From contig OZ024746.1 in assembly GCA_964016885.1 (NCBI GenBank), forward strand, positions 49,104,001 through 49,168,000: a stretch of DNA of 64,000 nucleotides, read 5' to 3'. This document shows positions 30,177 to 60,974 of the stretch, one piece after another. The DNA is from Eledone cirrhosa. Its lineage: Eukaryota. Positions within the stretch are counted from its first letter, which is position 1. The number at the start of each line of letters is the position of its first letter. The position numbers and the translations under genes were made by a program. Under the pieces are notes generated by a model, which did no database searches, was not told the DNA's origin, and saw only the letters and a list, made by a program, of their open reading frames with translations.

Positions 30177-33100
30177 ATGTCGAACCTAAACAGTTCGAAT
30201 AACGGTGAAGTGGAGACTGGAATGTCAAGTGACAGACTCTCACCCAGCAGGTGCTCCCTGGCTCAGCAGCAGGGACCTGGCTGTCAAACAAATACTGCTG
30301 GTGTCGGAGGAAGAAGAAGAAGTAAAGGGACCAGAACCAACTGGACGAAAGAATTGAATAGAACTGTTATGCAATGTTACCTGAAGAGTAACCCCAAGGA
30401 GAAAGGCTATAGGAAACGGATTCATAACTTCTGGAACGAGATTGGTCTATTTAAATTAGATGAACAAAAATTGGCCAGGCAGGCTCGGGTAATAAGAACT
30501 AATGGGTGGATAAGCGAGCTGGAACTGGAGGAACTGAGCAGAGAGATTAGGTTGGAAATGGAGAGTGCAGTATGCCAGTCAAACGAGCCAGTGGGAAATG
30601 AAGGTGAAGAGGTTGAGAGAACGGAGGAACCATTCGAAGCAGACAATGATCTGAATGCTGAGATAAATAATACCTGGGACAAAGATACGGCCATTGAGGA
30701 GATGAATGCTGACGGGCAAGGACAAGATTTTGTTGATATCCTAAACTTAGTGGTAGAGGAATTGAACAATGATAGTGGGAAACCTATGAACCTAAGATTT
30801 GTAGACAGGAAAAAGTTAAAAAAAACAACAGCTCAGGTAAACAAAGTCATCCCATACCTTGAGGCGAGGAGCCTTCACCAGTGCAACAATATCCTCAAAG
30901 TAACAGAAAATGCGGTGAGGAAATTACTTGGCATAAAAGCGAGAGGAAACAACAAACAAGAAAGATCAGAACCTTGGTGGAAGAAACGACTGAATGGTCA
31001 AATCAGGGAAATGAGAAATGACATTGGAAAGCTTGAGTCCCTACTGAATGGGACACTAAAAAACATAGACACTAAAAATAGACTGGAAATAAAGTACAAA
31101 ACTAGGAGGAAAAAGCTAAATATTATCATAGAGGAACTGAAGCAACGCATTGTAGCAAAGAGTGCACAAATTAGGCGATACGAGAGCAGAGTCAGTATAG
31201 ACAGAACCGCATGTTTGACAACAACCAGAAGATGAAGGGAAAGAATGAAGCAACGACTTGATCCCTGAGGCGGAACAAACTAAGACATTCTGGAGAGGAA
31301 TCTGGGAGCAGGATGTTAAACATAATGACCAGGAAGAGTGGATTGAGACAGTACAAAAGGAGATTAGTGAACAGGCACACCAACAAACTGATTTGAGTAT
31401 CACAGTTGAAACTCTTAAGGGGCAGGCCAAAAAACTAACCAACTGGAAATCACCAGGCCCAGATGGTGTGCAGGGGTATTGGATTAAAAATATAACATCC
31501 TTCCACCCGAAACTGACAACCATGTTCAATGACTGCTTGATGTCAGGTGAGGTACCAGAGTGGTTGACAAAAAGTACCACAGTTGTGGTAATGAAAGACC
31601 GAATCAAGGGTAATGATGTTACCAACTATAGACCTATCACATGTCTGTCCGTAATGTGGAAACTGTTGACAAGCATTATGTTTGAAGAAATCTACCATCA
31701 CCTCCACACAAACAACTTGTTACCGGACGAACAGAAAGGATGCCGAAAGAAGTCCCGTGGTACAAAGGACCAGTTACTTATTGATAAGATGGTAATGAGG
31801 AATTGCAAGAGGAGACACACTGGTCTTGCCATGGGATGGATAGACTACAAAAAGGCATTTGACATGGTGCCTCATTCTTGGATCACCAAAAGCCTTGAGA
31901 TCTTCAAGGTGGCAGATAACATCAGACAGTTGTTGGGCAAAAGTATGAAGTCCTGGAAAACAGAGTGAACATCAGCTGGAGAATCCTTGGGAGGCGTGAA
32001 GATCAAGAGAGGTATCTTCCAGGTAGATAGTCTGTCCCCTCTGTTGTTTGTCCTTGCCCTGATGGCCCTGACCATTATACTGCGAAAGGTGAGAGCAGGA
32101 TACAAGTTGGGAGAGGGAGAGCTTACCATCAATCACCTCCTCTTCATGGACGATCTTAAGCTCTTCGGGAAGAGTGAGAAGGAGTTGGATGTGCTTTTTG
32201 ACACTGTCCGTATTTTCAGCAATGATATATGTATGCAATTTGGTATTAGTAAGTGTGGAGTCCTTGTGATGAAGAGGGGGTAAATTGAGCAGAAGCAACG
32301 GAATCCAGGTACCAACAGGTGAGATGATAAAGGAAATTGACACTGAAGAAGAATACAAGTATTTGGGTGTTCTGGAGGCTGATCACATCAAGAACAAAAA
32401 AATGAAGGAATTGATAAGATCTGAATACATTCGGAGAGTAAGTAGCATATTAAAGTCACATCTGAACAGTAGGAATGCCATAAGTGCAGTAAATTAGTAA
32501 ATTCCCGAGCTGTGTCTATTATTAGGTACAGTGCGGGAATTCTGAGATGGAATGTTGCTGAACAAAAAGAAATGGATAGGAAGACTAGGAAGCTATTGAC
32601 TATCTACAACATGTTCCACAAGAGAAGTGATGTCGATAGACTCTACTTGAGGAGATCTGAAGGTGGAAGAGGTCTTATCGGCATAGAGGACTGTGTTCAG
32701 ATGGAGAAAAACAACCTACACAAATAGGTGACCGATAGTAAGGAGCCAATGCTCAGAATTGTACTGAAGGAGAGGACAATAGACCAGGGGATGCCCAGGG
32801 AGGAAATAACAACTAGGAGAAAGAGCAGCCTTCAGGAAAAATCCCTTCATAGTACCTTCTTTGAGAAAACTGAATTCAGAGATCCACAGATATGGAACTG
32901 GTTGAAAAGAGGAGACCTTAAAAAGGCTACAGAAGGAATGCTAATGGCTGCGCAAGAGCAGGCCCTCAAAACGAAGTGGTTGAAACACCATATTGACAAG
33001 GAGAACGCTAGCCCACTGTGCAGGATCTGTGGAGAGAGAGAGGAGACTGTGGATCACATTGTATCCGAGTGTAAACACCTAGCCCAGACTCACTATAAGG

Positions 33101-33490
33101 GCTGGAGACATGATGTGATGGGCAGGGTGATCTACTGGCACCTATGCAAAGTAAACAATTTACCACATTCTGAGAAGTGGTATGCGCATAAGCCAGGGTC
33201 GGTGATAGAAAACGATCAGGTGAAGGTGCTGTGGGATTTTAGGATACAGACGGACAAGAAACTGGAACACAATAGACCTGACCTGGTGGTTTTGGACAAG
33301 GAAAAAAGATCGTGCCTGATTGTGGATGTGGCCTACCCATTCGACTCGAGAGTGCAAGAGAAGGAGAGGGAGAAAATTAACCGATACGAGGACTTAAAGT
33401 GGTAGGTAAAAAGGATTTGGAACTGCCATGAAGTCAAAGTGGTCCCGATTGGCACACTAGGTACTATCTCAAAAAGTTTCCAGGGATGGA
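30177..33490 (+). pseudogene. Decayed R4/Dong-type LINE ORF (family B), 3' end lost
   Basis: Pieces 30177-31235, 31258-31968, 31987-32283, 32285-32497, 32512-32727, 32728-33405: WKSPGPDG, NYRPITCL, HLLFMDDLK, CRIC..ETVDHIVSEC, NRPDLVV..VDVAYP; ends abruptly in (TAG)n/(CAG)n. Confidence 0.92.
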
Positions 33491-37336: not shown

Positions 37337-37339
37337 CAC

Positions 37340-40300
37340 TCTTTTCTCCCTACCCTACTTACTCTCCCTTTCTCTCTGCTCTCCTTTTCTCCTTACACTG
37401 CCTGCTCACTTTCCCTCTGCTTCTTTATTCTCCTTTTCTCCTTGCTCTCCTTTTCTCCTTACTCTCCTTTAGCTTTACTTTCCTTTTCTCCTTGCTCTAT
37501 TTTCTCCTTGCTCTCCTTTCTCCGTTCTCTCCTTTCTGCTTGCTCTCCTTTCCCCTTGCTCTCCTTTCTCCTTACTCTCCTTTCTCCTTGCTCTCCTTTC
37601 TCATTACTCTCCTTTTATCCTCGCTCTTCTTTTCTCATTGCTCTCATTTCTCCGTGCTCTCCTTTCTCCTTGCTCTCATTTCTCCTTGTTCTCATTTCTC
37701 ATTACTCTCCTTTCTGCTTACTCTGCTTTCCCCTTGCTCTCGTTTCTCCTTGCTCTCCTTTCTCCTTGCTCTCCTTTTATCCTCGCTCTTCTTTTCTCAT
37801 TGCTCTCCTTTTCTCCTTGCTCTCCTTTCTGATTACTCTCCTTTCTTCTTGCTCTCCTTTCTCCTTGCTCTCCTTTCTCCTTGCTCTCCTTTCTCATTAC
37901 TCTCCTTTTCTCCTTCCTCTCCTTTTCTCATTGCTCTCCTTTTCTCATTGCTCTCCTTTCTCCGTTCTCTCCTTTCTGCTTGCTCTCCTTTCTCCTTGCT
38001 CTCCTTTCTCCTTGCTCTCCTTTCTCATTACTCTCCTTTCTGCTTACACTGCTTTCCCCTTGCTCTCCTTTCTCCTTACTCTCCTTTCTCCTTGCTCTCC
38101 TTTCTCATTACTCTCCTTTTATCCTCGCTCTTCTTTTCTCATTGCTCTCATTTCTCCGTGCTCTCCTTTATCCTTGCTCTCCTTTCTCCTTGTTCTCATT
38201 TCTCATTACTCTCCTTTCTGCTTACTCTGCTTTCCCCTTGCTCTGCTTTCTCCTTGCTCTCCTTTCTCCTTGCTCTCCTTTCTCCTTGCTCTCCTTTTAT
38301 CCTCGCTCTTCTTTTCTCATTGCTCTCCTTTTCTCCTTGCTCTCCTTTCTCATTAATCTCCTTTCTTCTTGCTCTCCTTTCTCCTTGCTCTCCTTTCTCC
38401 TTGCTCTCCTTTCTCATTACTCTCCTTTTCTCCTTTCTCTCCTTTTCTCATTGCTATCCCTTTCTCATTGCTCTCCTTTCTCCGTGCTCTCCTTTCTCCT
38501 CGCTCTCATTTCTCTCCTTGCTCTCCTTTCTCCTTGCTCTCCTTTTATCCTCGCTCTTCTTTTCTCATTGCTCTCCTTTTCTCCTTGCTCTCCTTTCTCA
38601 TTAATCTCCTTTCTTCTTGCTCTCCTTTCTCCTTGCTCTCCTTTCTCATTACTCTCCTTTTCTCCTTCCTCTCCTTTTCTCATTGCTCTCCTTTTCTCAT
38701 TGCTCTCCTTTCTCCGTTCTCTCCTTTCTGCTTGCTCTCCTTTCTCCTTGCTCTCCTTTCTCCTTGCTCTCCTTTCTCATTACTCTCCTTTCTGCTTACA
38801 CTGCTTTCCCCTTGCTCTCCTCTCTCCTTACTCTCCTTTCTCCTTGCTCTCCTTTCTCATTACTCTCCCTTTATCCTCGCTCTTCTTTTCTCATTGCTCT
38901 CATTTCTCCGTGCTCTCCTTTATCCTTGCTCTCCTTTCTCCTTGTTCTCATTTCTCATTACTCTCCTTTCTGCTTACTCTGCTTTCCCCTTGCTCTGCTT
39001 TCTCCTTGCTCTCCTTTCTCCTTGCTCTCCTTTCTCCTTGCTCTCCTTTTATCCTCGCTCTTCTTTTCTCATTGCTCTCCTTTTCTCCTTGCTCTCCTTT
39101 CTCATTAATCTCCTTTCTTCTTGCTCTCCTTTCTCCTTGCTCTCCTTTCTCCTTGCTCTCCTTTCTCATTACTCTCCTTTTCTCCTTTCTCTCCTTTTCT
39201 CATTGCTATCCTTTTCTCATTGCTCTCCTTTCTCCGTGCTCTCCTTTCTCCTCGCTCTCATTTCTCTCCTTGCTCTCCTTTCTCCTTGCTCTCCTTTTAT
39301 CCTCGCTCTTCTTTTCTCATTGCTCTCCTTTTCTCCTTGCTCTCCTTTCTCATTAATCTCCTTTCTTCTTGCTCTCCTTTCTCCTTGCTCTCCTTTCTCC
39401 TTGCTCTCCTTTCTCATTACTCTCCTTTTCTCCTTCCTCTCCTTTTCTCATTGCTATCCTTTTCTCATTGCTCTCCTTTCTCCGTGCTCTCCTTTCTCCT
39501 TGCTCTCATTTCTCTCCTTGCTCTCCTTTCTCCTTGCTCTCCTTTCCTCATTGCTCTCCTTTCAACTTACTATCCTTTTCTCCTTGCTCTCTTTTTCCCC
39601 CTTGGTCTCCTTTCTCTTTGCTCTCCTTTCTCCTTACTCTCCTTTTCTCCTTACGCTCCTTTTCTCCTTGCTCTCCTTTCTCTCCTTTCTCCTTGCTCTC
39701 CTTTCTCATTACTCTCCTTTTATCCTCGTTCTTCTTTTCTCATTGCTCTCCTTTCTCCTTGCTCTCCTTTCTCCTTGCTCTCCTTTCCTCATTGCTCTCC
39801 TTTCAACTTACTATCCTTTTCTCCTTGCTCTCTTTTCCCCCTTTCTCCCCTTTCTCTTTGCTCTCCTTTTTCCTTACTCTCCTTTTCTCCTTACGCTCTT
39901 TTCTCCTTGCTCTCCTTACTCCTTGCTATCCTTTCTCATTACTCTCCTTTTATCCTCGTTCTTCTTTTCTCATTGCTCTCCTTTCTGCGTGCTCTCCTTT
40001 CTCCTTGCTCTCCTTTCTCCTTGTTCTCATTTCTCATTACTCTCCTTTCTGCTTACTCTGCTTTCCCCTTGCTCTCCTTTCTCCTTGCTCTCCTTTCTCC
40101 TTGCTCTACTTTCTCATTACTCTCCTTTTATCCTGACTCTTCTTTTCTCATTGCTCTCCTTTCTCCGTGCTCTCCTTTCTCATTACTCTCCTTTTCTCCT
40201 TGCTCTCCTTTTCTCCTTACTCTCCTTTCTCATTACTCTCCTTTCTTCTTGCTCTCCTTTTTCCTTGCTCTCCTCTCTCATTACTCTCCTTTTCTTCTTC

Positions 40301-40750
40301 CTCTCCTTTTCTCATTGCTCTCCTTTTCTCATTGCTCTCCTTTCTCCGTGCTCTCCTTTCTCCTTGCTCTCATTTCTCTCCTTGCTCTCCTTTCTCCTTG
40401 CTCTCCTTTCTCCTTGCTCTCATTTCTCTCCTTGCTCTCCTTTCTCCTTGCTCTCATTTCTCTTCTTGCTCTCCTTTCTCCTTGCTCTCCTTTTCTCATT
40501 GCTCTCCTTTCAACTTACTATCCTTTTCTCCTTGCTCACTTTTTACCCCTTGCTCTCCTTTCTCTTTGCTCTCCTTTCTCCTTACTCTCCTTTTCTCCTT
40601 ACTCTCCTTTTCTCCTTGCTCTCATTTTCTCCTTGCTCTCCTGTTCTCCTTACTCTCCATGCTATCCTTGCTCTCCCTGGGCTCTTTATTCTCCTTTTTC
40701 TCCCTACTGTCCTGCTCTCCTTTTCTGCCCGTTTTCCTTGTTTTCCTTTT
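37340..40750. repeat. 3.4-kb pyrimidine-rich satellite, ~16-17-bp unit (TTGCTCTCCTTTCTCC) with higher-order repeats
   Basis: Rare variant TCCGTTCT at 37521, 37961 and 38713; matching ORF translations offset by 752 bp (38196/38948, 38369/39121). Confidence 0.95.
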
Positions 40751-41406: not shown

Positions 41407-41817
41407 TTGAATATATATTTTCACTCTATAAGAATTATAAATAATATAATTTTGATAGCAAAAAGAAAAAAAAACAACATAATTAGATAAATATTCAGCA
41501 TATACTTAAAAATAATATACAAGATTACATGTATGGATATTTGGGGCAAATGTAGTGCGAGAATCCAGGAGCTTGTGGTTGGAAAGTAAACTTCATATAT
41601 TCTAGCCACACGATTGATATATACATACATATATACATATACAAACACACACACACATTGTTTACTGATTGAGTGTTGCATACGCAACCCAAGTAGAGTC
41701 AATATCTAATAACACACGCATATATATAAATATATAACAAAGGAATTGTGGTAAGGAACCAGATGGACCATAACGCATCAGAGTACTCAATACTTAGGAT
41801 AATAGAGTGGGAAATAG

Positions 41818-41859
41818 GAAAAAGTATGACCTCGATGGCCGTCGGGGTCATACTTTTTC
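41818..41859. repeat. 42-bp near-perfect palindrome
   Basis: GAAAAAGTATGACCTCGATGG|CCGTCGGGGTCATACTTTTTC (2 C>T differences). Confidence 0.92.
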
Positions 41860-41865
41860 ATATAA

Positions 41866-41898
<33 letters not shown>

Positions 41899-42548
41899 TA
41901 ATATAATAAATAACAAAGAACGCTTATAGCATATGCATATCTTTACTTGCTAACATTGTTTCATCCGCACTATAAGTGGGACTCATCAGAGCATAAAGGT
42001 TAATTACATACCATACAAGCAATAACAAATCCAAGACATTGAAGAATGAAAGGTAATAATAGACGATAAATGATAAGAATAAAAATAAAAGTAAAAATAA
42101 AAATAAAAATAAGGGGTGCTATCAGTCACAGTTGGGCGGGGTGCTGTCAACATATAGTTACATACAAGCATACACATGGATAAGAGAACATACAAGAGTA
42201 GACACATGGATAAGAGAACAGACAAGAGTAGATAAGATAGATGGGATTAGGTAAGAGTAGGTAAAAATAGGTAAAAAATAGGTGAAAAACAGACTTATAA
42301 TATATATAAATAAGAAAATATAAAGAAATACAAAGAAATACATAACAAACTTACATATAAAATATAGGGTAAGGAATGAGATAAAATAATATAAAATTAA
42401 AATTAAAAATTATATACATAGAACATAATATAATATAATCGTAAAATAAGATAAAATAAGGTAAACTAAAATCAAATAACATAGACTAAATTAAAATAAT
42501 ATAATATAAGATATAATTAAATGTATAATTAAATGTAATTAAATGTAA

Positions 42549-42588
<40 letters not shown>

Positions 42589-43701
42589 AAATTAAATAAA
42601 TAAATAAAATTTAAATTTAAATTTTTAAATTTAAATTTAAATTTAAATTTAAATAAATAAATAAATAAATAAATGGAGTCAAGTAAGTAAATAAATAAAA
42701 TTAGATAACATGAAATGAAATAAAGTAAAATAAAATGAAATAAAATAATGAAATAATGTAAATTGAGATAAGATATATATTTTTTTAGAATATATCTCTT
42801 GAATATATCAGGGGCCCACGAAGGCACTAAGTGTCACAGTTATGTGTATCACTTGACCATTTTTTAAAAATATATTTCTTGAAAACATCAGGGGCCCACG
42901 AAGGCACTAAGTGTCACAGTCACCAGTATCACTTGACCATTGCAAGGCAATGGAGGCGTCCCAGGTTGGGCAGTCTCGAAAGTTCACTCGAAAGTCATGG
43001 GTGTGCATTCACACAGTTGAGCGGTGGGGTAATCACAAACCGGTTCACACCCGGGCAGGAGTCCAATGGTCAGAGAGAGGTGCATCGAAGGAGGTAGAAG
43101 AATTCACGTGCATTAGCAAGCGAGGTGCAGGCGGGTTAAAGCAAGCAGACACAGTTGTAGCGCATACAAAAGATATATAAAAAGACAGAAGATATATAAA
43201 AAATAGCTTCAAGAGCCATTAAGTCACCGCATTGGGACATCACAAGATTGTACACATCAATATGTTCAGCACGTATATGCACGTATACACACCACATGCA
43301 TATGCAGAGACGGTATACATATATATATATATATATTTTTTTATATATACAGACACATACAACCACCTACAACCATACACATATAAATGTATACACGGAC
43401 ACACACGCACACACACACAGCGTAGGACACCCGGGTCAAAGCTGATATTAAACACCGAAATACCACATTAGACCAGACCCACCACCACAGGTAATACATT
43501 CAAAATAAATACATACGATGGGATGTAGTAAAATAAAGTTGAAATCCTACGGAGATATTCATGTCCGCACGTGCCATTGACCGATTCGAGTGTACACAGA
43601 CCGTTAGTAACTACGGAGGGCTATCGGGGCCAAAACGTTACTTTCGGGATCATAACAACGACCGTCAATATATGGAAGGCCGATCGTGCTAGAAAGACTA
43701 C
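41899..43701 (-). mobile_element. PLE-1 solo 3' UTR/pLTR copy A
   Basis: Direct repeat of 44256-46074; 3' end merges with (TA)n. Confidence 0.92.
41948..41993 (-). ncRNA. Minimal type I hammerhead, PLE-1 copy A
   Basis: Reverse complement of 53198-53243. Confidence 0.8.
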
Positions 43702-44079
43702 TGTCATCCTCCTTATCGATTTGTAAAATGAATTACTATTTAGTAATGCTCTCTGATTTATGTCTTGATTTATTCGTACTTTACATTTCTTCGTCATATC
43801 CGCAGTACACCGCCTTTCTACAGTCATAATTTCCCCCACTCACACAATCTTTCTCTCTGTGAATCTCTTTCTCTCTTTCAGTCCATCTTTCTATGTCTCT
43901 ATCTCTCCTCTTCCTCCTCTCCCTCGCTTGCTCTCTTTGTAGCTTTATTTCATGTAGTCGATTTGATTTCGTTTATAGTTATGAACTATCAAAAAGAAGC
44001 AAAAGTGTCTGACACGATTCTTCGTCTATTCTGGAAATGAAATATACAACAAATGTAACTGGTTACATCATTGATTATA

Positions 44080-44155
<76 letters not shown>

Positions 44156-44304
44156 TATATATATATAGTATGCTAGGGAAAGGATCAGGGGTGTATAACA
44201 CTCCACTTATCCAGCAGGCAGTATGAGGTTAGCTCAATGTCTGAGGACAGAGCCGTAATATAATAAATAACAAAGAACGCTTATAGCATATGCATATCTT
44301 TACT

Positions 44305-44350
44305 TGCTAACATTGTTTCATCCGCACTATAAGTGGGACTCATCAGAGCA
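44305..44350 (-). ncRNA. Minimal type I hammerhead, PLE-1 copy B
   Basis: Reverse complement of 53198-53243. Confidence 0.8.
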
Positions 44351-44905
44351 TAAAGGTTAATTACATACCATACAAGCAATAACAAATCCAAGACATTGAA
44401 GAATGAAAGGTAATAATAGACGATAAATGATAAGAATAAAAATAAAAGTAAAAATAAAAATAAAAATAAGGGGTGCTATCAGTCACAGTTGGGCGGGGTG
44501 CTGTCAACATATAGTTACATACAAGCATACACATGGATAAGAGAACAGACAAGAGTAGACACATGGATAAGAGAACAGACAAGAGTAGATAAGATAGATG
44601 GGATTAGGTAAGAGTAGGTAAAAATAGGTAAAAAATAGGTGAAAAACAGACTTATAATATATATAAATAAGAAAATATAAAGAAATACAAAGAAATACAT
44701 AACAAACTTACATATAAAATATAGGGTAAGGAATGAGATAAAATAATATAAAATTAAAATTAAAAATTATATACATAGAACATAATATAATATAATCGTA
44801 AAATAAGATAAAATAAGGTAAACTAAAATCAAATAACATAGACTAAATTAAAATAATATAATATAAGATATAATTAAATGTATAATTAAATGTAATTAAA
44901 TGTAA

Positions 44906-44953
<48 letters not shown>

Positions 44954-46552
44954 AAATTAAATAAATAAATAAAATTTAAATTTAAATTTTAAAATTTAAA
45001 TTTAAATTTAAATTTAAATTTAAATAAATAAATAAATAAATAAATGGAGTCAAGTAAGTAAATAAATAAAATTAGATAACATGAAATGAAATAAAGTAAA
45101 ATAAAATGAAATAAAATAATGAAATAAAGTAAATTGAGATAAGATATATATTTTTTTAGAATATATCTCTTGAATATATCAGGGGCCCACGAAGGCACTA
45201 AGTGTCACAGTTATGTGTATCACTTGACCATTTTTTTTAAATATATTTCTTGAAAACATCAAGGGCCCACGAAGGCACTAAGTGTCACAGTCACCAGTAT
45301 CACTTGACCATTGCAAGGCAATGGAGGCGTCCCAGGTTGGGCAGTCTCGAAAGTTCACTCGAAAGTCATGGGTGTGCATTCACACAGTTGAGCGGTGGGG
45401 TAATCACAAACCGGTTCACACCCGGGCAGGAGTCCAATGGTCAGAGAGAGGTGCATCGAAGGAGGTAGAAGAATTCACGTGCATTAGCAAGCGAGGTGCA
45501 GGCGGGTTAAAGCAAGCAGACACAGTTGTAGGGCATACAAAAGATATATAAAAAGACAGAAGATATATAAAAAATAGCTTCAAGAGCCATTAAGTCACCG
45601 CATTGGGACATCACAAGATTGTACACATCAATATGTTCAGCACGTATATGCACGTATACACACCACATGCATATGCAGAGACGGTATACATATATATATA
45701 TATATATATTTTTTTATATATACAGACACATACAACCACCTACACCCATACACATATAAATGTATACACGGACACACACGCACACACACACAGCGTAGGA
45801 CACCCGGGTCAAAGCTGATATTAAACACCGAAATACCACATTAGACCAGACCCACCACCACAGGTAATACATTCAAAATAAATATATACGATGGGATGTA
45901 GTAAAATAAAGTTGAAATCCTACGGAGATATTCATGTCCGCACGTGCCATTGACCGATTCGAGTGTACACAGACCGTTAGTAACTACGGAGGGCTATCGG
46001 GGCCAAAACGTTACTTTCGGGATCATAACAACGACCGTCAATATATGGAAGGCCGATCGTGCTAGAAAGACTACAACCCCGGGTAAGAGCTCCCAGAGGT
46101 CAGCCTGTAGATCTTGAACCACAGAATATGAGGGCAACACGTATATGCGCCGCGTATCCACTGCTTACGGCGGGATGGCACGGGTCCGCCCACAGTTACA
46201 GGCTAAATTTCTACTAGTGCAGCCTAAATCGCAGTACACGCTTTACATAAATACATTACATCACAACTCATGCGCATACAGAGGTACAGATCAACAAGAT
46301 ATACGTCAGGATAGGTCCACCAATGCACCAATGGTGGGTAGGCCAGCGTGGATGGGTTACATCCACTGTGCCAAACAGGGGTGCTTATTAACATACACTC
46401 CCCTGCACACCCCGATATCCAGATCAATATCCTCCCACAGGCATACGTATACATTCACCGACTCGTATACATAGACGACCAACAATAGGAGACAGTTACA
46501 CACAGTCAGAGACAGTTACACAAGACAGCCCAACTGGAGGAATAAGGAAGTG

Positions 46553-49037
46553 CTAGCTAACAGGTTTAAAGTAGAAGAAAGAGCTTAATATTCGGTGGGG
46601 GCAAGAGGAAAAAATTTCAGACTTTCTATTTAGTAGAGGGCATTTAGCAAATATAATAGAGTGGGATTCGGCAAGGCACAGGTTACATACTCTACTATGA
46701 GGAGTATATGGATGGGATTTAGCAACCTGCCGCCAAGTAAGTGTGTAACGTGTTCGTGCATTTTTTAAATTATGGACGTACGCTGCCAAGGAGGTGGAGT
46801 TCCTCAGTTTATTATGTCTAAAAGTGCATTGATGAGAGTTAAACCTGGTCTTAAAGGGGGTGGAGGTTGATCCTATATAGGTCCTAGTGGACGCCGTAGT
46901 TACCACATCACACGCATAAACTATGTTTCTAACAAGGCAGAAACCATTCAGGGGGCAGCCTGAAGCCCTTCTACAGTTACAACCTCTGGTGATGCTATTC
47001 TCAGAAAGATCACCACCAGTGTTTCTGCCCACTCTATCCACTACCGTGTTTTCCCCTAGGCTTAGGTTGTCCAGGCCTTCCTTTATTTTCTTATTATTAG
47101 TGATGGCCAGATGAGAGGCCAGATTTTGGGTTGTAGAATACGAAAGTTTAACAACATTCTTATTGAGGATAGAGTGGTACCTATTACCAGGAGGGAAGTT
47201 CCGTTCTAGCACAGAGAAGAAGGCCCTAGGAATATTTATAGCCACTTCAGAATTAAAAGGGGGGTTGAAGTATGTATTCAATCTTCTTCTATTCTTTTTA
47301 TTCTTTCTATTTCCATCAGTATTATTAGCATTATTATTTCTACGGTTCCTATGCTCACCTAGTCTATGCGGGGAGCTGCGAGGCCTACCATTGCTTTTAC
47401 TTAGACTAATGGTGCCCTGCTGGTTCATTCCACCGGCATCTAGAAACCTCCCGCTCACGACACCTCTATTGTTATTACTTAGACTAATGGTGCCCTGCTG
47501 TTTCATTCCACCGGCATTTAGAACCCTCCCATTCGCGACACCTCGATTACCAATGGACATATTATGTGTTATAACAACACTGGTAGAGCTACTATTAGGA
47601 CCATTATTTCCCTTTGGTGTAATACAATTTGTCCCTAAAGCCGGATCTAGCTAAGGCGTCGTTATAGTAATCAGCCTGCGAGTCAAACGCCTCCTCACTA
47701 TGTGAGAGTGAACTTATTCTGTTAGATACGCCCTTCAGTATACCGCTGATGACAGACCTAGGGTGGTTGGAGTTGACGTAAGTCAGCAATTCATTGGGCT
47801 TATGGTACGGTGTGTACGTATGGTTATCCAAGTCCAGTGTAACATCTAGGAAGTTCACAGTTCTATCATTTACATCCATAGTAATGGATAGGTTAAATGT
47901 TTTAAAAAAGCTATGCAGCTTTTTCCTAATGCGCACTATATTATACTTACTAGTATCTATGGAGAGTAGGGCGTCATCCCGGTACAACCCGCCCCTAAGG
48001 AAAGGGAAGTTACTATGCAGTTCATTGAGGAGGTATAGTCCAACTAAGTCGGTGACTTGAGCAGAGTCACTCGACCCCATAGTAATGTCAAAATTATCAG
48101 GTGTGTTTTTTCTCGTCCATAGATTATCCTCAAACATGATAATGGTTTTACGTGCAGCGAGAACAATATCTATCTGTGGCCTAGTAATTGCCCCCCTCTG
48201 CATGGTTAGGATGAGGGCCTTATTGAGGATAATAGGAGATATAGATGTATAATAAGCATCAATATCAAATTGGATGAATTTTAGTGAGTCACGACCACAA
48301 TCCGTAGAGAACCACGTAATGACCTCACTAGTGTTACCCCAAGCTCAAGGAAAGTTTTTTCTCTAACCAGGGGAATAACGCTATCCAAGATTCCCTTACT
48401 AATAATCCCCAGGTCAGACTTGGAGGGGCAGATAAGCCTAACTGAGGGTCTGCTAATAAAATCTTCCTTGTAGTCCTTGAGGGTGAATCTAGGCTGCTTG
48501 GGGTAATAAGGCTGAGTGTGTTTATCCAGACCTAATTTTACCACTATGTTATACCCCTCCAGATTAATATTATCTAAATTACTCTGCGTTGTTTTTTTGT
48601 AGTTCCTATGCAGTTCATTATAAATGAAGCCTCGATAGGTTTTATAATCCATACTATATAAGTTTTTAGTTTTGTCAGAGGGGACCAGAATGGATTTATT
48701 ATCCCTAAAGTCCCTAACGATTGAACTTAGTTTACTCTGAAATTTATTGGTACATCTAGATTTTTTATATCTAATATTCCTAACAAGGGATAATAGCTCA
48801 CTTTCGAAGTTATCCAACAGGCTATTATGCGGGGGGCTCCTATAGGTCTTAAATCCATAATTATTAAAACTACGCCTCTCCTCAGGGCTATCATACCTCC
48901 TATCAAAGTGGAACGCACGCCACCGAACACGTTTTACGAATGAGTTTATGCTAGTTATCAATGATTTCTCATATGAGATTTTAGGGGGGGGTGGGAATAT
49001 TCTTCAAGGAAATGGGTAAGTATGTCTTTGTTAGCAT
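46553..49037 (-). pseudogene. PLE-1 RT + GIY-YIG polyprotein (~827 aa reconstructed; three 1-nt indels)
   Basis: MLTKTYLPISLKNIPTP..FVKRVRWRA..PSDKTKNLY..KFIQFDIDAYYTSI..ITMGSSDSAQVTDLVG..GLYRDDAL..VNFLDVTLDL..YFNPPF..CNCRRASGCPLNGFCL..NIVY..TYIGST..FKTRFNSH..CNLCLAE; indels near 48985, 48340 and 47610. Confidence 0.9.
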
Positions 49038-49246
49038 ACTGCCTGATAATATACAAGGACACAAATCCGCGTATATCAAAGTTTAAGCTCAACCAGTGGG
49101 AGCCGTATAGTATGCTAGGGAAAGGATCAGGGGTGTATAACACTCCACTTATCCAGCAGGCAGTATGAGGTTAGCTCAATGTCTGAGGACAGAGCCGTAA
49201 TATAATAAATAACAAAGAACGCTTATAGCATATGCATATCTTTACT

Positions 49247-49292
49247 TGCTAACATTGTTTCATCCGCACTATAAGTGGGACTCATCAGAGCA
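49247..49292 (-). ncRNA. Minimal type I hammerhead, PLE-1 copy C (upstream of ORF)
   Basis: Reverse complement of 53198-53243. Confidence 0.8.
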
Positions 49293-50392
49293 TAAAGGTT
49301 AATTACATACCATACAAGCAATAACAAATCCAAGACATTGAAGAATGAAAGGTAATAATAGACGATAAATGATAAGAATAAAAATAAAAGTAAAAATAAA
49401 AATAAAAATAAGGGGTGCTATCAGTCACAGTTGGGCGGGGTGCTGTCAACATATAGTTACATACAAGCATACACATGGATAAGAGAACAGACAAGAGTAG
49501 ACACATGGATAAGAGAACAGACAAGAGTAGATAAGATAGATGGGATTAGGTAAGAGTAGGTAAAAATAGGTAAAAAATAGGTGAAAAACAGACTTATAAT
49601 ATATATAAATAAGAAAATATAAAGAAATACAAAGAAATACATAACAAACTTACATATAAAATATAGGGTAAGGAATGAGATAAAATAATATAAAATTAAA
49701 ATTAAAAATTATATACATAGAACACAATATAATATAATCGTAAAATAAGATAAAATAAGGTAAACTAAAATCAAATAACATAGACTAAATTAAAATAATA
49801 TAATATAAGATATAATTAAATGTATAATTAAATGTAATTAAATGTAATTAAATAAATAAATAAATAAATAAAAATTAAATAAATAAATAAAATTTAAATT
49901 TAAATTTTAAAATTAAAATTAAAATTTAAATTTAAATAAATAAATAAATAAATAAATGGAGTCAAGTAAGTAAATAAATAAAATTAGATAACATGAAATG
50001 AAATAAAGTAAAATAAAATGAAATAAAATAATGAAATAAAGTAAATAGAGATAAGATATATATTTTTTTAGAATATATCTCTTGAATATATCAGGGGCCC
50101 ACGAAGGCACTAAGTGTCACAGTTATGTGTATCACTAGACCATTTTTTAAAAATATATTTCTTGAAAACATCAGGGGCCCACGAAGGCACTAAGTGTCAC
50201 AGTCACCAGTATCACTTGACCATTGCAAGGCAATGGAGGCGTCCCAGGTTGGGCAGTCTCGAAAGTTCACTCGAAAGTCATGGGTGTGCATTCACACAGT
50301 TGAGCGGTGGGGTAATCACAAACCGGTTCACACCCGGGCAGGAGTCCAATGGTCAGAGAGAGGTGCATCGAAGGAGGTAGAAGAATTCACGT

Positions 50393-50995
50393 GTTGTTAA
50401 ACTTTCGTATTCTACAACCCAAAATCTGGCCTCTCATCTGGCCATCACTAATAATAAGAAAATAAAGGAAGGCCTGGACAACCTAAGCCTAGGGGAAAAC
50501 ACGGTAGTGGATAGAGTGGGCAGAAACACTGGTGGTGATCTTTCTGAGAATAGCATCACCAGAGGTTGTAACTGTAGAAGGGCTTCAGGCTGCCCCCTGA
50601 ATGGTTTCTGCCTTGTTAGAAACATAGTTTATGCGTGTGATGTGGTAACTACGGCGTCCACTAGGACCTATATAGGATCAACCTCCACCCCCTTTAAGAC
50701 CAGGTTTAACTCTCATCAATGCACTTTTAGACATAATAAACTGAGGAACTCCACCTCCTTGGCAGCGTACGTCCATAATTTAAAAAATGCACGAACACGT
50801 TACACACTTACTTGGCGGCAGGTTGCTAAATCCCATCCATATACTCCTCATAGTAGAGTATGTAACCTGTGCCTTGCCGAATCCCACTCTATTATATTTG
50901 CTAAATGCCCTCTACTAAATAGAAAGTCTGAAATTTTTTCCTCTTGCCCCCACCGAATATTAAGCTCTTTCTTCTACTTTAAACCTGTTAGCTAG
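50393..50995 (+). pseudogene. 5'-truncated GIY-YIG endonuclease portion of PLE-1
   Basis: Same translation as the C-terminus of 46553-47560. Confidence 0.9.
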
Positions 50996-52594
50996 CACTT
51001 CCTTATTCCTCCAGTTGGGCTGTCTTGTGTAACTGTCTCTGACTGTGTGTAACTGTCTCCTATTGTTGGTCGTCTATGTATACGAGTCGGTGAATGTATA
51101 CGTATGCCTGTGGGAGGATATTGATCTGGATATCGGGGTGTGCAGGGGAGTGTATGTTAATAAGCACCCCTGTTTGGCACAGTGGATGTAACCCATCCAC
51201 GCTGGCCTACCCACCATTGGTGCATTGGTGGACCTATCCTGACGTATATCTTGTTGATCTGTACCTCTGTATGCGCATGAGTTGTGATGTAATGTATTTA
51301 TGTAAAGCGTGTACTGCGATTTAGGCTGCACTAGTAGAAATTTAGCCTGTAACTGTGGGCGGACCCGTGCCATCCCGCCGTAAGCAGTGGATACGCGGCG
51401 CATATACGTGTTGCCCTCATATTCTGTGGTTCAAGATCTACAGGCTGACCTCTGGGAGCTCTTACCCGGGGTTGTAGTCTTTCTAGCACGATCGGCCTTC
51501 CATATATTGACGGTCGTTGTTATGATCCCGAAAGTAACGTTTTGGCCCCGATAGCCCTCCGTAGTTACTAACGGTCTGTGTACACTCGAATCGGTCAATG
51601 GCACGTGCGGACATGAATATCTCCGTAGGATTTCAACTTTATTTTACTACATCCCATCGTATATATTTATTTTGAATGTATTACCTGTGGTGGTGGGTCT
51701 GGTCTAATGTGGTATTTCGGTGTTTAATATCAGCTTTGACCCGGGTGTCCTACGCTGTGTGTGTGTGCGTGTGTGTCCGTGTATACATTTATATGTGTAT
51801 GGGTGTAGGTGGTTGTATGTGTCTGTATATATAAAAAAATATATATATATATATATATGTATACCGTCTCTGCATATGCATGTGGTGTGTATACGTGCAT
51901 ATACGTGCTGAACATATTGATGTGTACAATCTTGTGATGTCCCAATGCGGTGACTTAATGGCTCTTGAAGCTATTTTTTATATATCTTCTGTCTTTTTAT
52001 ATATCTTTTGTATGCCCTACAACTGTGTCTGCTTGCTTTAACCCGCCTGCACCTCGCTTGCTAATGCACGTGAATTCTTCTACCTCCTTCGATGCACCTC
52101 TCTCTGACCATTGGACTCCTGCCCGGGTGTGAACCGGTTTGTGATTACCCCACCGCTCAACTGTGTGAATGCACACCCATGACTTTCGAGTGAACTTTCG
52201 AGACTGCCCAACCTGGGACGCCTCCATTGCCTTGCAATGGTCAAGTGATACTGGTGACTGTGACACTTAGTGCCTTCGTGGGCCCTTGATGTTTTCAAGA
52301 AATATATTTAAAAAAAATGGTCAAGTGATACACATAACTGTGACACTTAGTGCCTTCGTGGGCCCCTGATATATTCAAGAGATATATTCTAAAAAAATAT
52401 ATATCTTATCTCAATTTACTTTATTTCATTATTTTATTTCATTTTATTTTACTTTATTTCATTTCATGTTATCTAATTTTATTTATTTACTTACTTGACT
52501 CCATTTATTTATTTATTTATTTATTTAAATTTAAATTTAAATTTAAATTTAAATTTTAAAATTTAAATTTAAATTTTATTTATTTATTTAATTT

Positions 52595-52642
<48 letters not shown>

Positions 52643-53197
52643 TTACATTTAATTACATTTAATTATACATTTAATTATATCTTATATTATATTATTTTAA
52701 TTTAGTCTATGTTATTTGATTTTAGTTTACCTTATTTTATCTTATTTTACGATTATATTATATTATGTTCTATGTATATAATTTTTAATTTTAATTTTAT
52801 ATTATTTTATCTCATTCCTTACCCTATATTTTATATGTAAGTTTGTTATGTATTTCTTTGTATTTCTTTATATTTTCTTATTTATATATATTATAAGTCT
52901 GTTTTTCACCTATTTTTTACCTATTTTTACCTACTCTTACCTAATCCCATCTATCTTATCTACTCTTGTCTGTTCTCTTATCCATGTGTCTACTCTTGTC
53001 TGTTCTCTTATCCATGTGTATGCTTGTATGTAACTATATGTTGACAGCACCCCGCCCAACTGTGACTGATAGCACCCCTTATTTTTATTTTTATTTTTAC
53101 TTTTATTTTTATTCTTATCATTTATCGTCTATTATTACCTTTCATTCTTCAATGTCTTGGATTTGTTATTGCTTGTATGGTATGTAATTAACCTTTA

Positions 53198-53243
53198 TGC
53201 TCTGATGAGTCCCACTTATAGTGCGGATGAAACAATGTTAGCA
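53198..53243 (+). ncRNA. Minimal type I hammerhead, PLE-1 copy D
   Basis: TGCT-CTGATGA-GTCC-CACTTATAGTG-C-GGAT-GAAA-CAATG-TT^AGCA: stem I TGCT/AGCA, stem II GTCC/GGAT extended by CACT/AGTG, predicted cleavage after GUU. Confidence 0.8.
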
Positions 53244-53392
53244 AGTAAAGATATGCATATGCTATAAGCGTTCTTTGTTATTTATTATATTACGGCTCTG
53301 TCCTCAGACATTGAGCTAACCTCATACTGCCTGCTGGATAAGTGGAGTGTTATACACCCCTGATCCTTTCCCTAGCATACTATATATATATA

Positions 53393-53484
<92 letters not shown>

Positions 53485-54159
53485 TATAATCAATGATGTA
53501 ACCAGTTACATTTGTTGTATATTTCATTTCCAGAATAGACGAAGAATCGTGTCAGACACTTTTGCTTCTTTTTGATAGTTCATAACTATAAACGAAATCA
53601 AATCGACTACATGAAATAAAGCTACAAAGAGAGCAAGCGAGGGAGAGGAGGAAGAGGAGAGATAGAGACATAGAAAGATGGACTGAAAGAGAGAAAGAGA
53701 TTCACAGAGAGAAAGATTGTGTGAGTGGGGGAAATTATGACTGTAGAAAGGCGGTGTACTGCGGATATGACGAAGAAATGTAAAGTACGAATAAATCAAG
53801 ACATAAATCAGAGAGCATTACTAAATAGTAATTCATTTTACAAATCGATAAGGAGGATGACAAAAAAGAAAAAAAGACTGGATCGAGAAACGAGATCAGT
53901 GGGAGGACGAACGAATAAAATAGAGAGAGAGACAGGCATAGATAGAGAGACAAATAGAACGAGAGAGGGAGCGAGAGGGAGAGGAGTAGAGACAGAGAGA
54001 GAGAAAGTGAACGAGAGAGTGAGGGGGAGAGAGAGAGAGAAAGAGAGGGAGAGAGAGAGAGAAAGAGAACGAGAGAGAAAGGGATAGAGAGAGATAGAGA
54101 GAGAGAGAAAGAGAACGAGAGAGAGAGGGAGAGAGAGAGAGAAAGAGAACGAGAGAGAA

Positions 54160-55170: not shown

Positions 55171-55887
55171 GTAGAACACTGGAAGGTAATATCCGTAGTG
55201 GTAGAGCACTCAGTCCATGGGACGAGTTAGGTAGAGGTGGTTACACAACAGTTAGTTCACCATATCGAGAACAATTGTTTCACCTTAGCTGATCCTCAGC
55301 TCGTAATGGACATGGTTATATGGAACAGGAAGGACAACCCTATGAAAATGCATGCGCAGAAACGGTCACTTCACCCAGGCAATACAAAATTGCGTGCGAG
55401 GTGTAAGGGAGATAAATGCGAAAGTCCGAAAATTTCTAGTTGATAAGAAAATTAGGATGTTGTTGTAATTCAATCCCAAGCTTTGTAGTTATGTAAGAGG
55501 TGTTTCCAGACGTGTAGACAACGTGTGAAGAATTCATTCCTTGAGTTTAGGCAAATTGCCTAAACTCAAGAAATGAATTCTACACGTCTCGAAACACCTC
55601 TTACATAACTACAAAGCTCCGGATTGAATTACAACAACATCCTAATTTTCTTATCAACTAGAAACTTTCGGACTTTCGCAGTTAAATCCCTTACACCTCT
55701 CGCACGCAATTTTGTATTGCCTGGGAGAAGTGACCGTTTTGCGCATGCGCGTTCATACGGTTGTCCTCCCTGTTCCGTATAACCATGTCCATTACGAGCT
55801 GAGGATCCGATAAGGTGAAACAAGTGTTCTCGGTATGGTGAACTAACTATTGTGTAATCACTTCTATATATATATATATATATATAT

Positions 55888-56663: not shown

Positions 56664-57077
56664 AGTGTAATTTTCTACACAAAACGAAGGTTATAGAGAA
56701 AATTGAGGTTGGTAATGGCACATGGAATATATAAGAGACAGAATACTTTTTTGTGAAAAAACATAATTTTATAAGGTAAGGAAATAATAAAGGGTATAAA
56801 AAATGACCGGTTTCGATGGGTCTGCAAAAGCCATCTTTTCAAATGTTGATTAATATTAAGAAAAATTAATAATACGAAGAGTTAAAATTTGAGACTTGAA
56901 AATTCAAGTATAAAATTCATTGTGGGATTTCATAGCAGTTTTCATCTAGGTAGCAACAACAGGTTGACTGCTGTGTCCCTTTCTGGTAGTGAATGAGAAG
57001 TTATTTGGGGTGTGGGTTATTTTATAAAGGTCAGATTTAGCAATAGCCAGCTGCTGGTCAGTGAGGGGGTGGAAGCA

Positions 57078-57752
<675 letters not shown>

Positions 57753-57977
57753 TATATTTTTTCCATAATATAAGAAGTTGGGGCAGTGAAATTAAAATAA
57801 TTCTGTGTGCGCATATATATATAGATATACGTGTGTGCACGTGCAGGGTTTAACATGGATGTGTTGGTCACACAAAGGCATGGTCTGTCAATGAATAAAC
57901 CTGATTCTACAGAATTGGTCTCTGGTCTTTAATAGTAGTGATTCCGTGCGTATGTGTGTTTATATTTTATGACAATT

Positions 57978-59720
57978 CTATTGGGGTGATAACCCGTTTA
58001 GTTTTGGTTTAAATTTGTTAAGGAATAGATTTTCTTTGTTTATTCTTTGTTGTTGTGTGAACGAATCTGAGCACTTGTAGAAGGGGAAGATTTTAAAGTT
58101 GGGTAGTGTCATTCCTGCGCAGTTCGCAATATGGCTGCTCAAGGGGATTTTTCTTGTGTTAGCGTCCCGGATTTGTTGGCGGTGGATGGTCATTCTTTTG
58201 CGTAATGAGGTGCCCGTCTGTCCTATGTAGTTGTGTTTGCACCCACCGCAAGTTATTGCGTAAATCAAGTTCTCCGAGTTGCAGGTGAAATTGTTTTTTA
58301 CTGTAAATGTTTGGCCATCTTTGAATGTAAATGTTTGTCCTTCAGTGAGGTAGAGGCACGTTCCACAGTTTGTTCTACCACATTTGGTAACTGTAGGGTT
58401 GAGGATTGGTTTGGGTATATTTGGTCCAGTGAGAATGCGTTTAAGTGATTTGGGTTGTCTTTTACTTTTAAGGATCTTGTGTGTTTCAAGAATAGACTTC
58501 ATTTTTACATCTTTAAGTAGGATGGGGAGGTTTTTGTGTAGGTGATCAAACATTTCGGTATTTCTGGGGTTGAAAGTGGATACATATGGCAGGGTGTTGA
58601 GTGTGGTTTTCTGTTTTGGATTGTTAAGTTGATGGGGATTTAGGTGTTTTGCCCTGTCTATTCCATTGTTGATTATTTCAAGTGGAAAGGCTCTTAAGAT
58701 AAGGGTGTCTTTTAGTTCCTTTAGTCTTTGCTCCCGTTTAGGTGGATCTGATACTATGGTACATATACGTTTGGCCAAATTGTAAGGAATGTTAAGTTTT
58801 GTATGTTTTGGGTGACTTGATGTGAAAAAGAGGTATTGCTTGGAATCTGTGGGTTTATAGAATATATCTGTATCTAATTTCCCGTCTATTACAGAGATGA
58901 GAATATCCAAGAAGGCTAATTCCTTAGGATTGGATTCCATTGTGAATTGTATGTTATTATCTATGTTGTTTATCATGTTTTTAAACGTAGTAAGTGAGTT
59001 CATGTCTTCTTGCCATAGGATAAAGCAGTCGTCTAGATATCTTTTCCAATTGGCTTTGAGGTGTGTGTGGAAAGAGTCTCCAAATAAGAGAAGGGACTGA
59101 CTGTATATTTGTTGTTCATGGAATCCCATGACTAGGTTGGCATATGTGGGTGCTACTTTCGTGCCCATTGCCGTACCTGATACTTGTCTGTATGTTGAAC
59201 CATTGAATGTGAAGTAGTTATTTTGTAGGATAAAGCGGAGTCCGTCAGTGATAAAATCTGTGTTGATGCGTGTCGGTATTTCTGATGGGTGTGTGTTAAG
59301 CCAGTATTGGACTGCTGTTATTCCATAGTTGTGAGGTATGTTTGTGTAGAGGTTTATTACGTCAAAGGAGACAAGAATTGTATTTGCACTTACTGTTTTA
59401 GGGAGGTGTTTCAGCATGTCAAGGTCATCTCGTATGTAGCTCTGTATATGTTGTAGAAAGGGTTTCAGTAGGATGTCCAGAAAGTTGCTAAGTCTGTGGG
59501 TTTCACATGTAGGGCCTGCTATAATTGGCCTGAGTTTTAGGTCTTCTGGTGGTGTTAGTTCAATGTAATTGTTGGTTGAGGTGTCACATGCATCGTTTAT
59601 GGGTTTACATTTGTGAAGTTTCGGTAAGCCGTAAAAAGAGCTTGTATTGCATTTGAAGTGGCTTATATAGTTAAACTCTTTTGTGGTTAAGCTGTTGCGG
59701 TATTTATTCAGTAAGGTCAA
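57978..59720 (-). CDS. PLE-2 reverse transcriptase + Cys-linker + GIY-YIG endonuclease (Neptune-type), N-terminally truncated
   Basis: 580 aa without stops: FYGLPKLHK, LRPII, SFDVINLYTNIP, GTAMGTKVAPTYANL, WKRYLDDCF, FLDI, YKPTD, KCGRTNCGTC, NLIYAITCGGC..YIGQT..RKRMTIH. Confidence 0.93.
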   Translation of the reverse strand: MTLLNKYRNSLTTKEFNYISHFKCNTSSFYGLPKLHKCKPINDACDTSTNNYIELTPPEDLKLRPIIAGPTCETHRLSNFLDILLKPFLQHIQSYIRDDLDMLKHLPKTVSANTILVSFDVINLYTNIPHNYGITAVQYWLNTHPSEIPTRINTDFITDGLRFILQNNYFTFNGSTYRQVSGTAMGTKVAPTYANLVMGFHEQQIYSQSLLLFGDSFHTHLKANWKRYLDDCFILWQEDMNSLTTFKNMINNIDNNIQFTMESNPKELAFLDILISVIDGKLDTDIFYKPTDSKQYLFFTSSHPKHTKLNIPYNLAKRICTIVSDPPKREQRLKELKDTLILRAFPLEIINNGIDRAKHLNPHQLNNPKQKTTLNTLPYVSTFNPRNTEMFDHLHKNLPILLKDVKMKSILETHKILKSKRQPKSLKRILTGPNIPKPILNPTVTKCGRTNCGTCLYLTEGQTFTFKDGQTFTVKNNFTCNSENLIYAITCGGCKHNYIGQTGTSLRKRMTIHRQQIRDANTRKIPLSSHIANCAGMTLPNFKIFPFYKCSDSFTQQQRINKENLFLNKFKPKLNGLSPQ

Positions 59721-59926
59721 AAGGTTTGCTAAATCTGACCTTTATAAAATAACCCACACCCCAAATAACTTCTCATTCACTACCAGAAAGGGACACAGCA
59801 GTCAACCTGTTGTTGCTACCTAGATGAAAACTGCTATGAAATCCCACAATGAATTTTATACTTGAATTTTCAAGTCTCAAATTTTAACTCTTCGTATTAT
59901 TAATTTTTCTTAATATTAATCAACAT

Positions 59927-59964
59927 TTGAAAAGATGGCTTTTGCAGACCCATCGAAACCGGTC
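59927..59964 (+). ncRNA. Core-mutated hammerhead motif in PLE-2 pLTR (mirror copy 56805-56842, minus)
   Basis: TTGAAAA-GATGG-CTTTTGCAGAC-CCATC-GAAA-CCGG-TC: stems II and III intact, CUGANGA box altered. Confidence 0.55.
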
Positions 59965-60974
59965 ATTTTTTATACCCTTTATTATTTCCTTACCTTATAA
60001 AATTATGTTTTTTCACAAAAAAGTATTCTGTCTCTTATATATTCCATGTGCCATTACCAACCTCAATTTTCTCTATATATATATATATATATAATTACTC
60101 CATCTGTAAGCTTATTGTAATAACAATGCAAATATATTCATAATAGACTATATACAGAACCAATTTCGCCCATTACACCATACAAATCTCCAGCATCATC
60201 ATTGACACAACTACCAATAGTTATATCGCTTTTCTTACCACTATTTATTTATATTTCCACTAACACCATATGTAACATTAACCGGACCACCATCACCACC
60301 AAAACTACAAAACAACAAAAACAAAAACACACTCATCGCTATTTTCTTAAATGGTTTCATATATATTATTCGTAATTGCTTCATACTTCAACATTTCTGT
60401 TATTTTCCAGAAAATATATTTTCCTGGCGTAATTCATTGCCAATTATCAACTTTATCATCTTTTACGACAAAACATTGTCCAGCCAATTAAGACACTCTA
60501 ACGCTGTATCTCAACCTATTAAAATAGCAGCCAAATCACCCACAAACCACATCTACCGTCTCTCATTATAATTCTGTCGGACTGGTGCGAAATAATAACA
60601 CATTATACAATGGAACTCCTCTACACAGTGATTTCAACAGCTACAAATATAGTAGTCTTATCTTCAATTATCAGATTTAAAAGATGGACACATGATTCGA
60701 ACGTCTTTCATCATTAGTCCCTTGGGATGTGCCGTACCTAAGTTTAAGCAACGCACACGACACATCATTCAATGAGGGATTCTCAATGGAGAGCGTCGTC
60801 ATCCTAGAAATAGCAGACGAATATCTCTCAAAACACACCATACCAGCTTTAAAAAGAAATGGAGGGCGCTAGATGGACTATAGCCAATCTTAGAATGATT
60901 TTACTCGGTAAGAGCTGACTAAATATTAAACAACTGCAACTAAAACTGCGAATAATAATGGTTCCCCTTTATTT

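Follow-up and report, generated by a model that had tools for sequence, protein, structure and literature searches.

The window analysed here, a stretch of 64,000 nucleotides from Eledone cirrhosa (contig OZ024746.1, positions 49,104,001 to 49,168,000 of the forward strand), contains a 12-kb complex of a Penelope-like element (PLE) in which a segment of neighbouring host DNA occurs twice, once in each orientation. The complex consists of the element parts A to D together with the host segment T and its inverted copy T' (Table 1), and element positions are given in unit coordinates (U), which number the minus-strand element from U1 at position 49105 to U4942 at position 44164. B together with the open reading frame (ORF) comprises U1-4942, and B, ORF and C jointly span 44164-50393, with C joined to the start of the unit at 49105/49106 as a partial tandem that forms a pseudo-long terminal repeat (pLTR), a junction that is also found in 23 places at sister loci. 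The 2-bp overlap at which C meets D resembles other inversion junctions of the family. Self-comparison of the window and pairwise alignments bore out the order and coordinates that a first-pass annotation had given for this complex, as well as its observation that AAGGGCCC (45261) and GGGCATAC (45531) are present in B and D, whereas neither is found in A, and C is without the first and stops short of the second.

Table 1. Features of the PLE complex in window coordinates.
Feature	Position	Strand	Description
(TA)n tract, left	41860..41899		Left half of the target tract, in line with the TA-rich tracts under family 3' ends
A	41899..43701	-	Element 3' part (U3032-4850), stopping at the tail-less end site
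A/T' junction	43701..43702		Novel junction; blunt, no insertion, not a TA target
T'	43702..44163	-	Inverted copy of the right flank, 462 bp (382 bp unique and (TA)n at 44084-44167)
B	44164..47156	-	Tailed element 3' region (tail of 92 bp, 44164-44255) reaching into the ORF's 3' part; no difference from D
Switch interval	45886..47156	-	Would contain the hidden point of homologous switching that separates D-type from original sequence; bounded by the last allele specific to B/D (45885) and by the limit of D homology (47156)
ORF region	46553..49105	-	Broken reverse transcriptase (RT) and GIY-YIG ORF; three frameshifts, one 6-bp gap
C	49106..50393	-	Tandem 5' pLTR with tail (U3625-4942)
D	50392..53384	+	Inverted 5'-truncated copy with tail (U1950-4942); right outer end of the original insertion
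T	53385..53862	+	Right half of the (TA)n target tract and 382 bp of unique flank, 478 bp

The two arms of the complex, 43702-47156 (3455 bp) and 50392-53862 (3471 bp), are inverted to each other and show 0 substitutions, their single difference being 16 bp of (TA)n, a correspondence well in excess of random expectation. A aligns with B at 44256-46074 with 8 substitutions in 1803 bp and 3 microsatellite indels, and C differs from B at 8 positions in 1288 bp. Alleles were polarised against 84-152 other copies per site. Three alleles are common to all window copies that cover them (the locus-private 44428T, present in 1 of 152 others, and 45894G, 0 of 93, as well as 45096G, 5 of 116), and A, B, C and D thus stem from one source or insertion. 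Each copy has aged by about 0.2% after this insertion, with derived alleles confined to A (42191T, 42757T and 43372A, corresponding to B coordinates 44548, 45128 and 45745; 0 other copies each), to C (49725C, 50047A and 50137A, corresponding to 44783, with 1 other copy, and to 45135 and 45225, with 0), which has also changed in a slippage tract, and to the B/D pair (45238T, 4 of 113; 45262A, 3 of 111; 45532G, 0 of 99; 45885T, 0 of 93), the last four being absent from A and, where covered, from C.

B and D show 0 substitutions in 3371 non-TA bases, whereas A is separated from B/D by 7 events in 1803. Had B and D diverged at the rate seen for A versus B, they should differ at about 13 positions (Poisson P ~2e-6; Fisher P 6e-4), and the upper 95% bound of their divergence is 0.09%. 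The mutations common to B and D, together with the lack of differences between them, indicate that their split is much younger than the insertion and would date it to roughly the final quarter of the time since insertion, if not later. Of the composite origin proposed in the first-pass annotation, the template switch between genomic flank and element sequence therefore stands, whereas its timing, during Penelope's DNA synthesis at insertion, is not supported, in view of the four common derived changes of B and D, the lack of differences between the two, and the at least 3 own changes each of A and C. Errors of the RT are an unlikely source of the differences between A, C and B and were rejected on the strength of young sister loci, between whose copies 0 differences in 4165 columns and 2 in 4061 were counted (P 6e-7 for RT error as the explanation of A versus B), with the caveat that copies within young loci might themselves be DNA copies.

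Sister loci were collected by searches of the species' own genome (716-2907 first-look candidates, ~40 scored per search), and the comparison sample comprises 90 other loci of 6-30 kb, taken from the best matches and hence biased towards close, young copies. These loci bear on the scenario in which the flank was captured at the original insertion and B and D were made identical later by one whole-arm gene conversion. While the source alleles common to all four copies are compatible with it, and host spacers between the ORF and the 3' pLTR are known for Pen1_Av (PMC3846280), this scenario requires an extra recent, end-to-end conversion of 3.4 kb that left A and C unconverted, although both are inverted partners of D as well and C is the closer one. 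General gene conversion of inverted arms was also rejected, as it is not seen elsewhere: inverted arms at other loci differ by 0.32% (17 pairs) compared to 0.27% for direct pairs (16 pairs). The pooled figures cover pairs of at least 300 columns from the first 50 loci, counted outside AT-rich columns and without the window and locus C1002. Since flank capture is, moreover, found in 0 of 90 other insertions, we consider capture at insertion very unlikely.

The sister loci furthermore reveal how insertions of this family end. Two 3' end sites lie 92 bp apart, U4848-4850 without a tail and U4936-4942 with the 92-bp tail, and a TA-rich tract underlies 134 of the 138 non-tandem 3' ends; the other four include a mutated tandem junction. 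Head-to-head inverted complexes with an inverted 5'-truncated copy account for 52 of the 90 loci. One tail-less and one tailed outer end were found in 46 of these, none has ends that are alike, and 6 that are cut by the edge of the stretch or interrupted are unresolved; it should be noted that a tail query yielded some of the sample, so that one tailed end is given there in advance, whereas a tail-less partner is not. The pairing in all 46 resolvable complexes suggests that the use of the two RT start sites is coupled between both strand-priming events, a side result that is more useful to specialists than the flank duplication itself. Two RT start sites also define the tail of an anole element (PMC11167929). 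Each end site (window positions 44255/44256 and 49105/49106, minus strand; loci L051-L182) lies one base upstream of a similar predicted GGCUC...UUGAGCU hairpin, preceded by TA, with z-scores of -2.6 and -0.5 for the short folds. A has no hairpin-like sequence downstream, which makes initiation there, a prerequisite for carrying T' along, look unlikely.

A and D conform to this rule, one outer end being tail-less and the other tailed, which supports one original insertion with A as its left outer end and likely as the remnant of its initial full-length copy. A check for a target-site duplication showed TA tracts on both outer sides, each with a G interruption whose position is comparable but not the same. 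When 43702-46074 is deleted in silico, the layout of a sister locus (G000:C1:337.65 Mb) is obtained.

T is host DNA and not a normal part of the element. The whole assembly was searched for its 382 unique bp, and 100% matches were found only at the two places in the window; the remaining 47 of 49 matches reach 73-83% and are confined to the CT-rich part. In addition, none of the 90 other loci holds its own unique flank inside the array, where internal gaps correspond to element sequence or large unrelated inserts. This agrees with the first-pass annotation, which had described the ~460-bp segment as non-element DNA and called for a search for other carriers. T as a normal element part, or as a flank transduced from another locus, was rejected on the basis of the same assembly matches and loci, and 3' transduction by a retrotransposon does not describe the case either, T being present at one locus only and the junction lying off a TA tract. 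Spread of host sequence by the unit found no support, as T is absent from the rest of the assembly and nothing shows the unit moving; the 382-bp sequence is without an ORF of note, and the structure is present at 1 of 91 loci examined.

With a tail-less A and a tailed D as the outer ends of one insertion, the native place of T is most likely the right flank, and the purine-rich composition of T, albeit weak evidence, carries on from 53863 onward. The direction of copying could be reversed if T' and B were original, A a separate insertion, and D and T a later copy. Arm identity alone gives no direction, and a query across 53862/53863 matched the window alone, with no third copy or spanning homologue in the assembly. 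In this case, however, copying would have had to halt exactly at the truncation point of A, which carries locus-private alleles and, with D, follows the outer-end rule, and the family-like C/D junction as well as the continuation of T's composition into the right flank would be left aside. We regard this order of events as most improbable.

Several apparently similar cases were rejected. An inverted 1.06-kb pair beside a PLE 5' end at C3:257.09 Mb is a high-copy repeat, the pair at C3:7.9 Mb matches other loci too, and TA microsatellites account for what look like co-duplications at C1398, C2:170 Mb and C9:10 Mb; base-by-base inspection covered the apparent co-duplications except three shorter ones (C12, C1030 and C1:249 Mb). 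The first of these (L074:5488-8182, G000:C3:257.09 Mb) is itself a TA-bounded repeat, whose inverted pair of ~1.06 kb (94%) abuts the PLE 5' end. With 2859 candidates genome-wide, often as inverted pairs, it is possibly another PLE or a foldback family.

The history that we consider probable on the basis of the assembly sequence is that of an ordinary inverted Penelope insertion in which B and T' are a much younger, substitution-free copy of D and T, likely made by host break repair. The common alleles and the family end rule show the first step, in which one insertion into a (TA)n tract laid down a tail-less full-length copy with the tandem pLTR C on the minus strand and the inverted, tailed D on the plus strand, the initial layout being that of G000:C1:337.65 Mb. 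These copies then aged to about 0.2% each, as their private mutations show. Subsequently, the full-length copy would have been broken at 43701, and its right-hand end would have invaded D, ~5 kb away; copying would have run to the end of D and through (TA)n and 382 bp of flank before the product was end-joined to the left stump A. B would thus likely be copied from D, the likely donor. This would add 2373 bp net (43702-46074), while D sequence would have replaced 46075-47156 or been imposed on it by conversion. Two junctions would suffice, the visible one at 43701/43702 and one presumably hidden in the identical sequence of 45886-47156, and this step has no need of a transposon enzyme. That the A/T' junction is not a TA target was counted in favour of repair.

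Some observations weigh against this history. No empty allele turned up in the assembly, where a left-flank query matched the window and a short high-copy repeat, with no second haplotype of the locus. As no third copy was found, the continuity between T and the right flank is not demonstrable by homology, and the homologous junction is invisible by construction. Over 45886-47156, 0 differences are seen where ~5 would be expected, which needs either the loss of at most ~1 kb of the original copy or heteroduplex conversion. The A/T' junction, moreover, is blunt, with 0 bp of microhomology on both sides and no inserted bases, whereas blunt junctions make up 0 of 9 (PMC5104497) and 1 of 24 (PMC11293582) in the comparison sets.

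Zero divergence between the arms is also predicted by an assembly artefact, in which 43701 would have been linked by a chimeric read to 53862 on the opposite strand, with the assembler returning to the true path through the homology of A and D. Such an error would need one chimeric read to outvote all normal reads. It would account for arms that are identical but for (TA)n length, for the blunt junction and for a pattern seen at 0 of 90 other loci, and insertions of this kind are known to trouble assemblies (PMC8557442). The junction, however, is not a foldback: on the earlier allele, as inferred, ~7.8 kb would separate the points joined, compared with a limit of 200 bp in the definition of foldback artefacts, which were nearly absent from HiFi data (PMC12870357). 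Furthermore, the first 19 sister loci include 13 with an open frame of at least 780 aa, which points to accurate long reads. We therefore consider an artefact unlikely.

A contribution of Penelope enzymes to the second event was also weighed. The endonuclease would have cut the full-length copy and the RT would have copied read-through RNA or flank DNA from D and its flank, followed by resolution through homology, a course of events that seems hardly probable. Formulated as self-homing 3' transduction, it would involve a read-through RNA from D into the flank that was reverse transcribed into the cut neighbouring full-length copy and resolved by homology. The orientation fits target-primed synthesis from the end of A, the timing is compatible, T stops at the start of an A6-G-A7 tract, and the anole PLE cleaves at the boundary between its own ORF and pLTR, with weak priming in vitro from the RNA 3' end (PMC11167929). 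However, the target site is not TA-rich, with 2 TA steps per 16 nt at the A/T' site compared to at least 5 in 134 of 138 family ends, the junction is without poly(T), and the nearest AATAAA lies ~70 nt upstream. D is 5'-truncated, so that the RNA would have to start >1.7 kb inside it, and no transduced T exists elsewhere in the assembly. Self-homing thus appears quite improbable. If Penelope enzymes were nevertheless responsible, inverted arrays would be self-editing units that pull adjacent host DNA between the ORF and the terminal pLTR, and the locus would offer a visible route to spacer capture of the Pen1_Av type.

Repair from the inverted arm has counterparts among known processes. In long-tract gene conversion with non-canonical termination, one end is extended by kilobases from a homologous donor, beyond the limit of homology, and then fused to the other end by end joining (PMC5104497), as proposed here, and the allele phylogeny of A, B, C and D shows that the event postdates the repeats on which it acted. 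Unlike in that system, the donor would be the inverted arm of the same transposon insertion, and the junction is blunt, whereas in PMC5104497 microhomology or extra bases were found at all 9 cloned junctions. At inverted repeats, two-switch events whose one switch is hidden in identical sequence (PMC11293582) likewise share with the locus an inverted-repeat pair and one non-homologous junction, as well as one hidden switch, which is predicted for the locus. The locus works like these DUP-TRP/INV-DUP events but is not a member of their class, as it has no triplicated unique segment, 382 bp of unique DNA being present twice only, and is of kilobase scale. The process would therefore be repair of a known kind, seen here in a single case, that lacks the strict features of either comparison (triplication, microhomology). 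The literature searched, in its accessible parts, contains no report of a PLE inverted arm that duplicated its own flank after insertion, which is not proof of absence.

The underlying insertion resembles those described for endonuclease-containing (EN+) PLEs, which consist of a partial tandem, an inverted 5'-truncated copy and a tail at one end (PMC8557442, PMC3846280, PMC11167929). Shared features are the tandem pLTR, the head-to-head inverted copy, the tail at one outer end only, two 3' end sites, a TA/AT-rich target and, as a candidate counterpart of their hammerhead ribozyme, a hammerhead-like motif in the pLTR. Differences are found in the tail (92 bp compared to 30-40 bp), in the long, AT-rich pLTR region and in the extra 2.37-kb inverted copy with unique flank, which is present in 0 of 90 sister loci. 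The hammerhead-like motif (CUGAUGA...GAAA) lies in D at 53185..53260 (+), with minus-strand counterparts at 41983, 44340 and 49282; core boxes and stem II are present, the fold has a z-score of -1.3, and Rfam gave no match at E<=0.1. With Pen1_Av of Adineta vaga, the locus shares the sense order of ORF, 3' region, unique host spacer and terminal pLTR (PMC3846280). In A. vaga, spacer capture recurs with different spacers, and pLTR-framed host genes are described, one of which moved with a target-site duplication (PMC3846280). In contrast, the present case is a single locus, host spacers do not recur across copies (0 of 90 sister loci), and the spacer is a copy of the flank alongside, is younger than the insertion and has stayed in place.

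The coding region assigns the family to the EN+ PLEs with a single ORF for RT and, at the C-terminus, a GIY-YIG endonuclease. Compared with an intact sister copy, which encodes 844 aa, the window ORF has single-base frameshifts near 47613, 48340 and 48984 as well as a 6-bp in-frame gap near 47775. In the intact copy, RT-like and GIY-YIG-like motifs were recognised by eye, and the N-terminus and cysteine pattern presumably resemble those of Penelope/Poseidon, a clade marked by a CCHH motif and by the lack of the linker zinc finger of Neptune/Nematis. Placement in the Atlas yielded neighbouring clusters (0.95-0.98) with GIY-YIG (26-50% of members in five rows), HTH_animal and RVT_1 (18%, one row), and 1191 ORF homologues, nearly all unnamed, were found at E<=1e-20 among 8000 scored candidates. 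Pfam gave no match for the three ORF pieces of the window or for the intact copy, GIY-YIG is present in just 2 of 40 aligned proteins, and a PDB search with the family ORF returned no match. The N/G-rich linker of the family recalls the N-rich inserts of rotifer Penelope, and the linker between RT and endonuclease contains a 78-bp in-frame tandem duplication (47390-47548) that is also present in the intact sister copy. Elsewhere in the genome, L062-L064 (G000:C15:42.26 Mb) comprise three tandem copies with 0 substitutions over <=4165 columns, the two long ones sharing a shortened 661-aa frame, and at L067-L068 (G000:C1:331.445-331.454 Mb) a 2.75-kb unit is repeated in tandem at least 3 times with 99.9% identity at the 5' end of a family copy.

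The complex is embedded in a repeat-rich neighbourhood. Just to its left lies a 3.3-kb CT-rich minisatellite (37339-40750; period ~16, ~198 copies), and a high-copy short repeat (41720-41862; 3197 candidates) ends in a hairpin that adjoins the TA tract that received the PLE. A second, unrelated PLE at 56692-60077 contains a 587-aa frame (57978-59741, minus strand) with RVT_1 and GIY-YIG and is framed by 352-bp inverted ends (56692-57043 and 59726-60077) that are 100% identical, with TA tracts outside. Further to the left, two broken RT-type non-LTR retrotransposon copies with stops and frameshifts occupy 24600-28200 (+) and 30177-33405 (-), and 28533-28987 matches 33041-33489 at 94.5%. Palindromic segments were found at 55232-55866 (~635 bp, 88%) and 15929-16189 (260 bp, 98%).

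Capture of host DNA between pLTRs is already known (PMC3846280), and the locus described here looks like a real and recent one-off, an ordinary PLE insertion within which repair of a known kind has produced an inverted duplication, with a local effect, namely the duplication of 382 bp of unique sequence. If the repair history holds, it would constitute a clean and datable natural case of templated repair acting on the inverted arms of a PLE and duplicating host DNA next to them, and it would carry the warning that host DNA inside a PLE array need not have been captured by the transposon.

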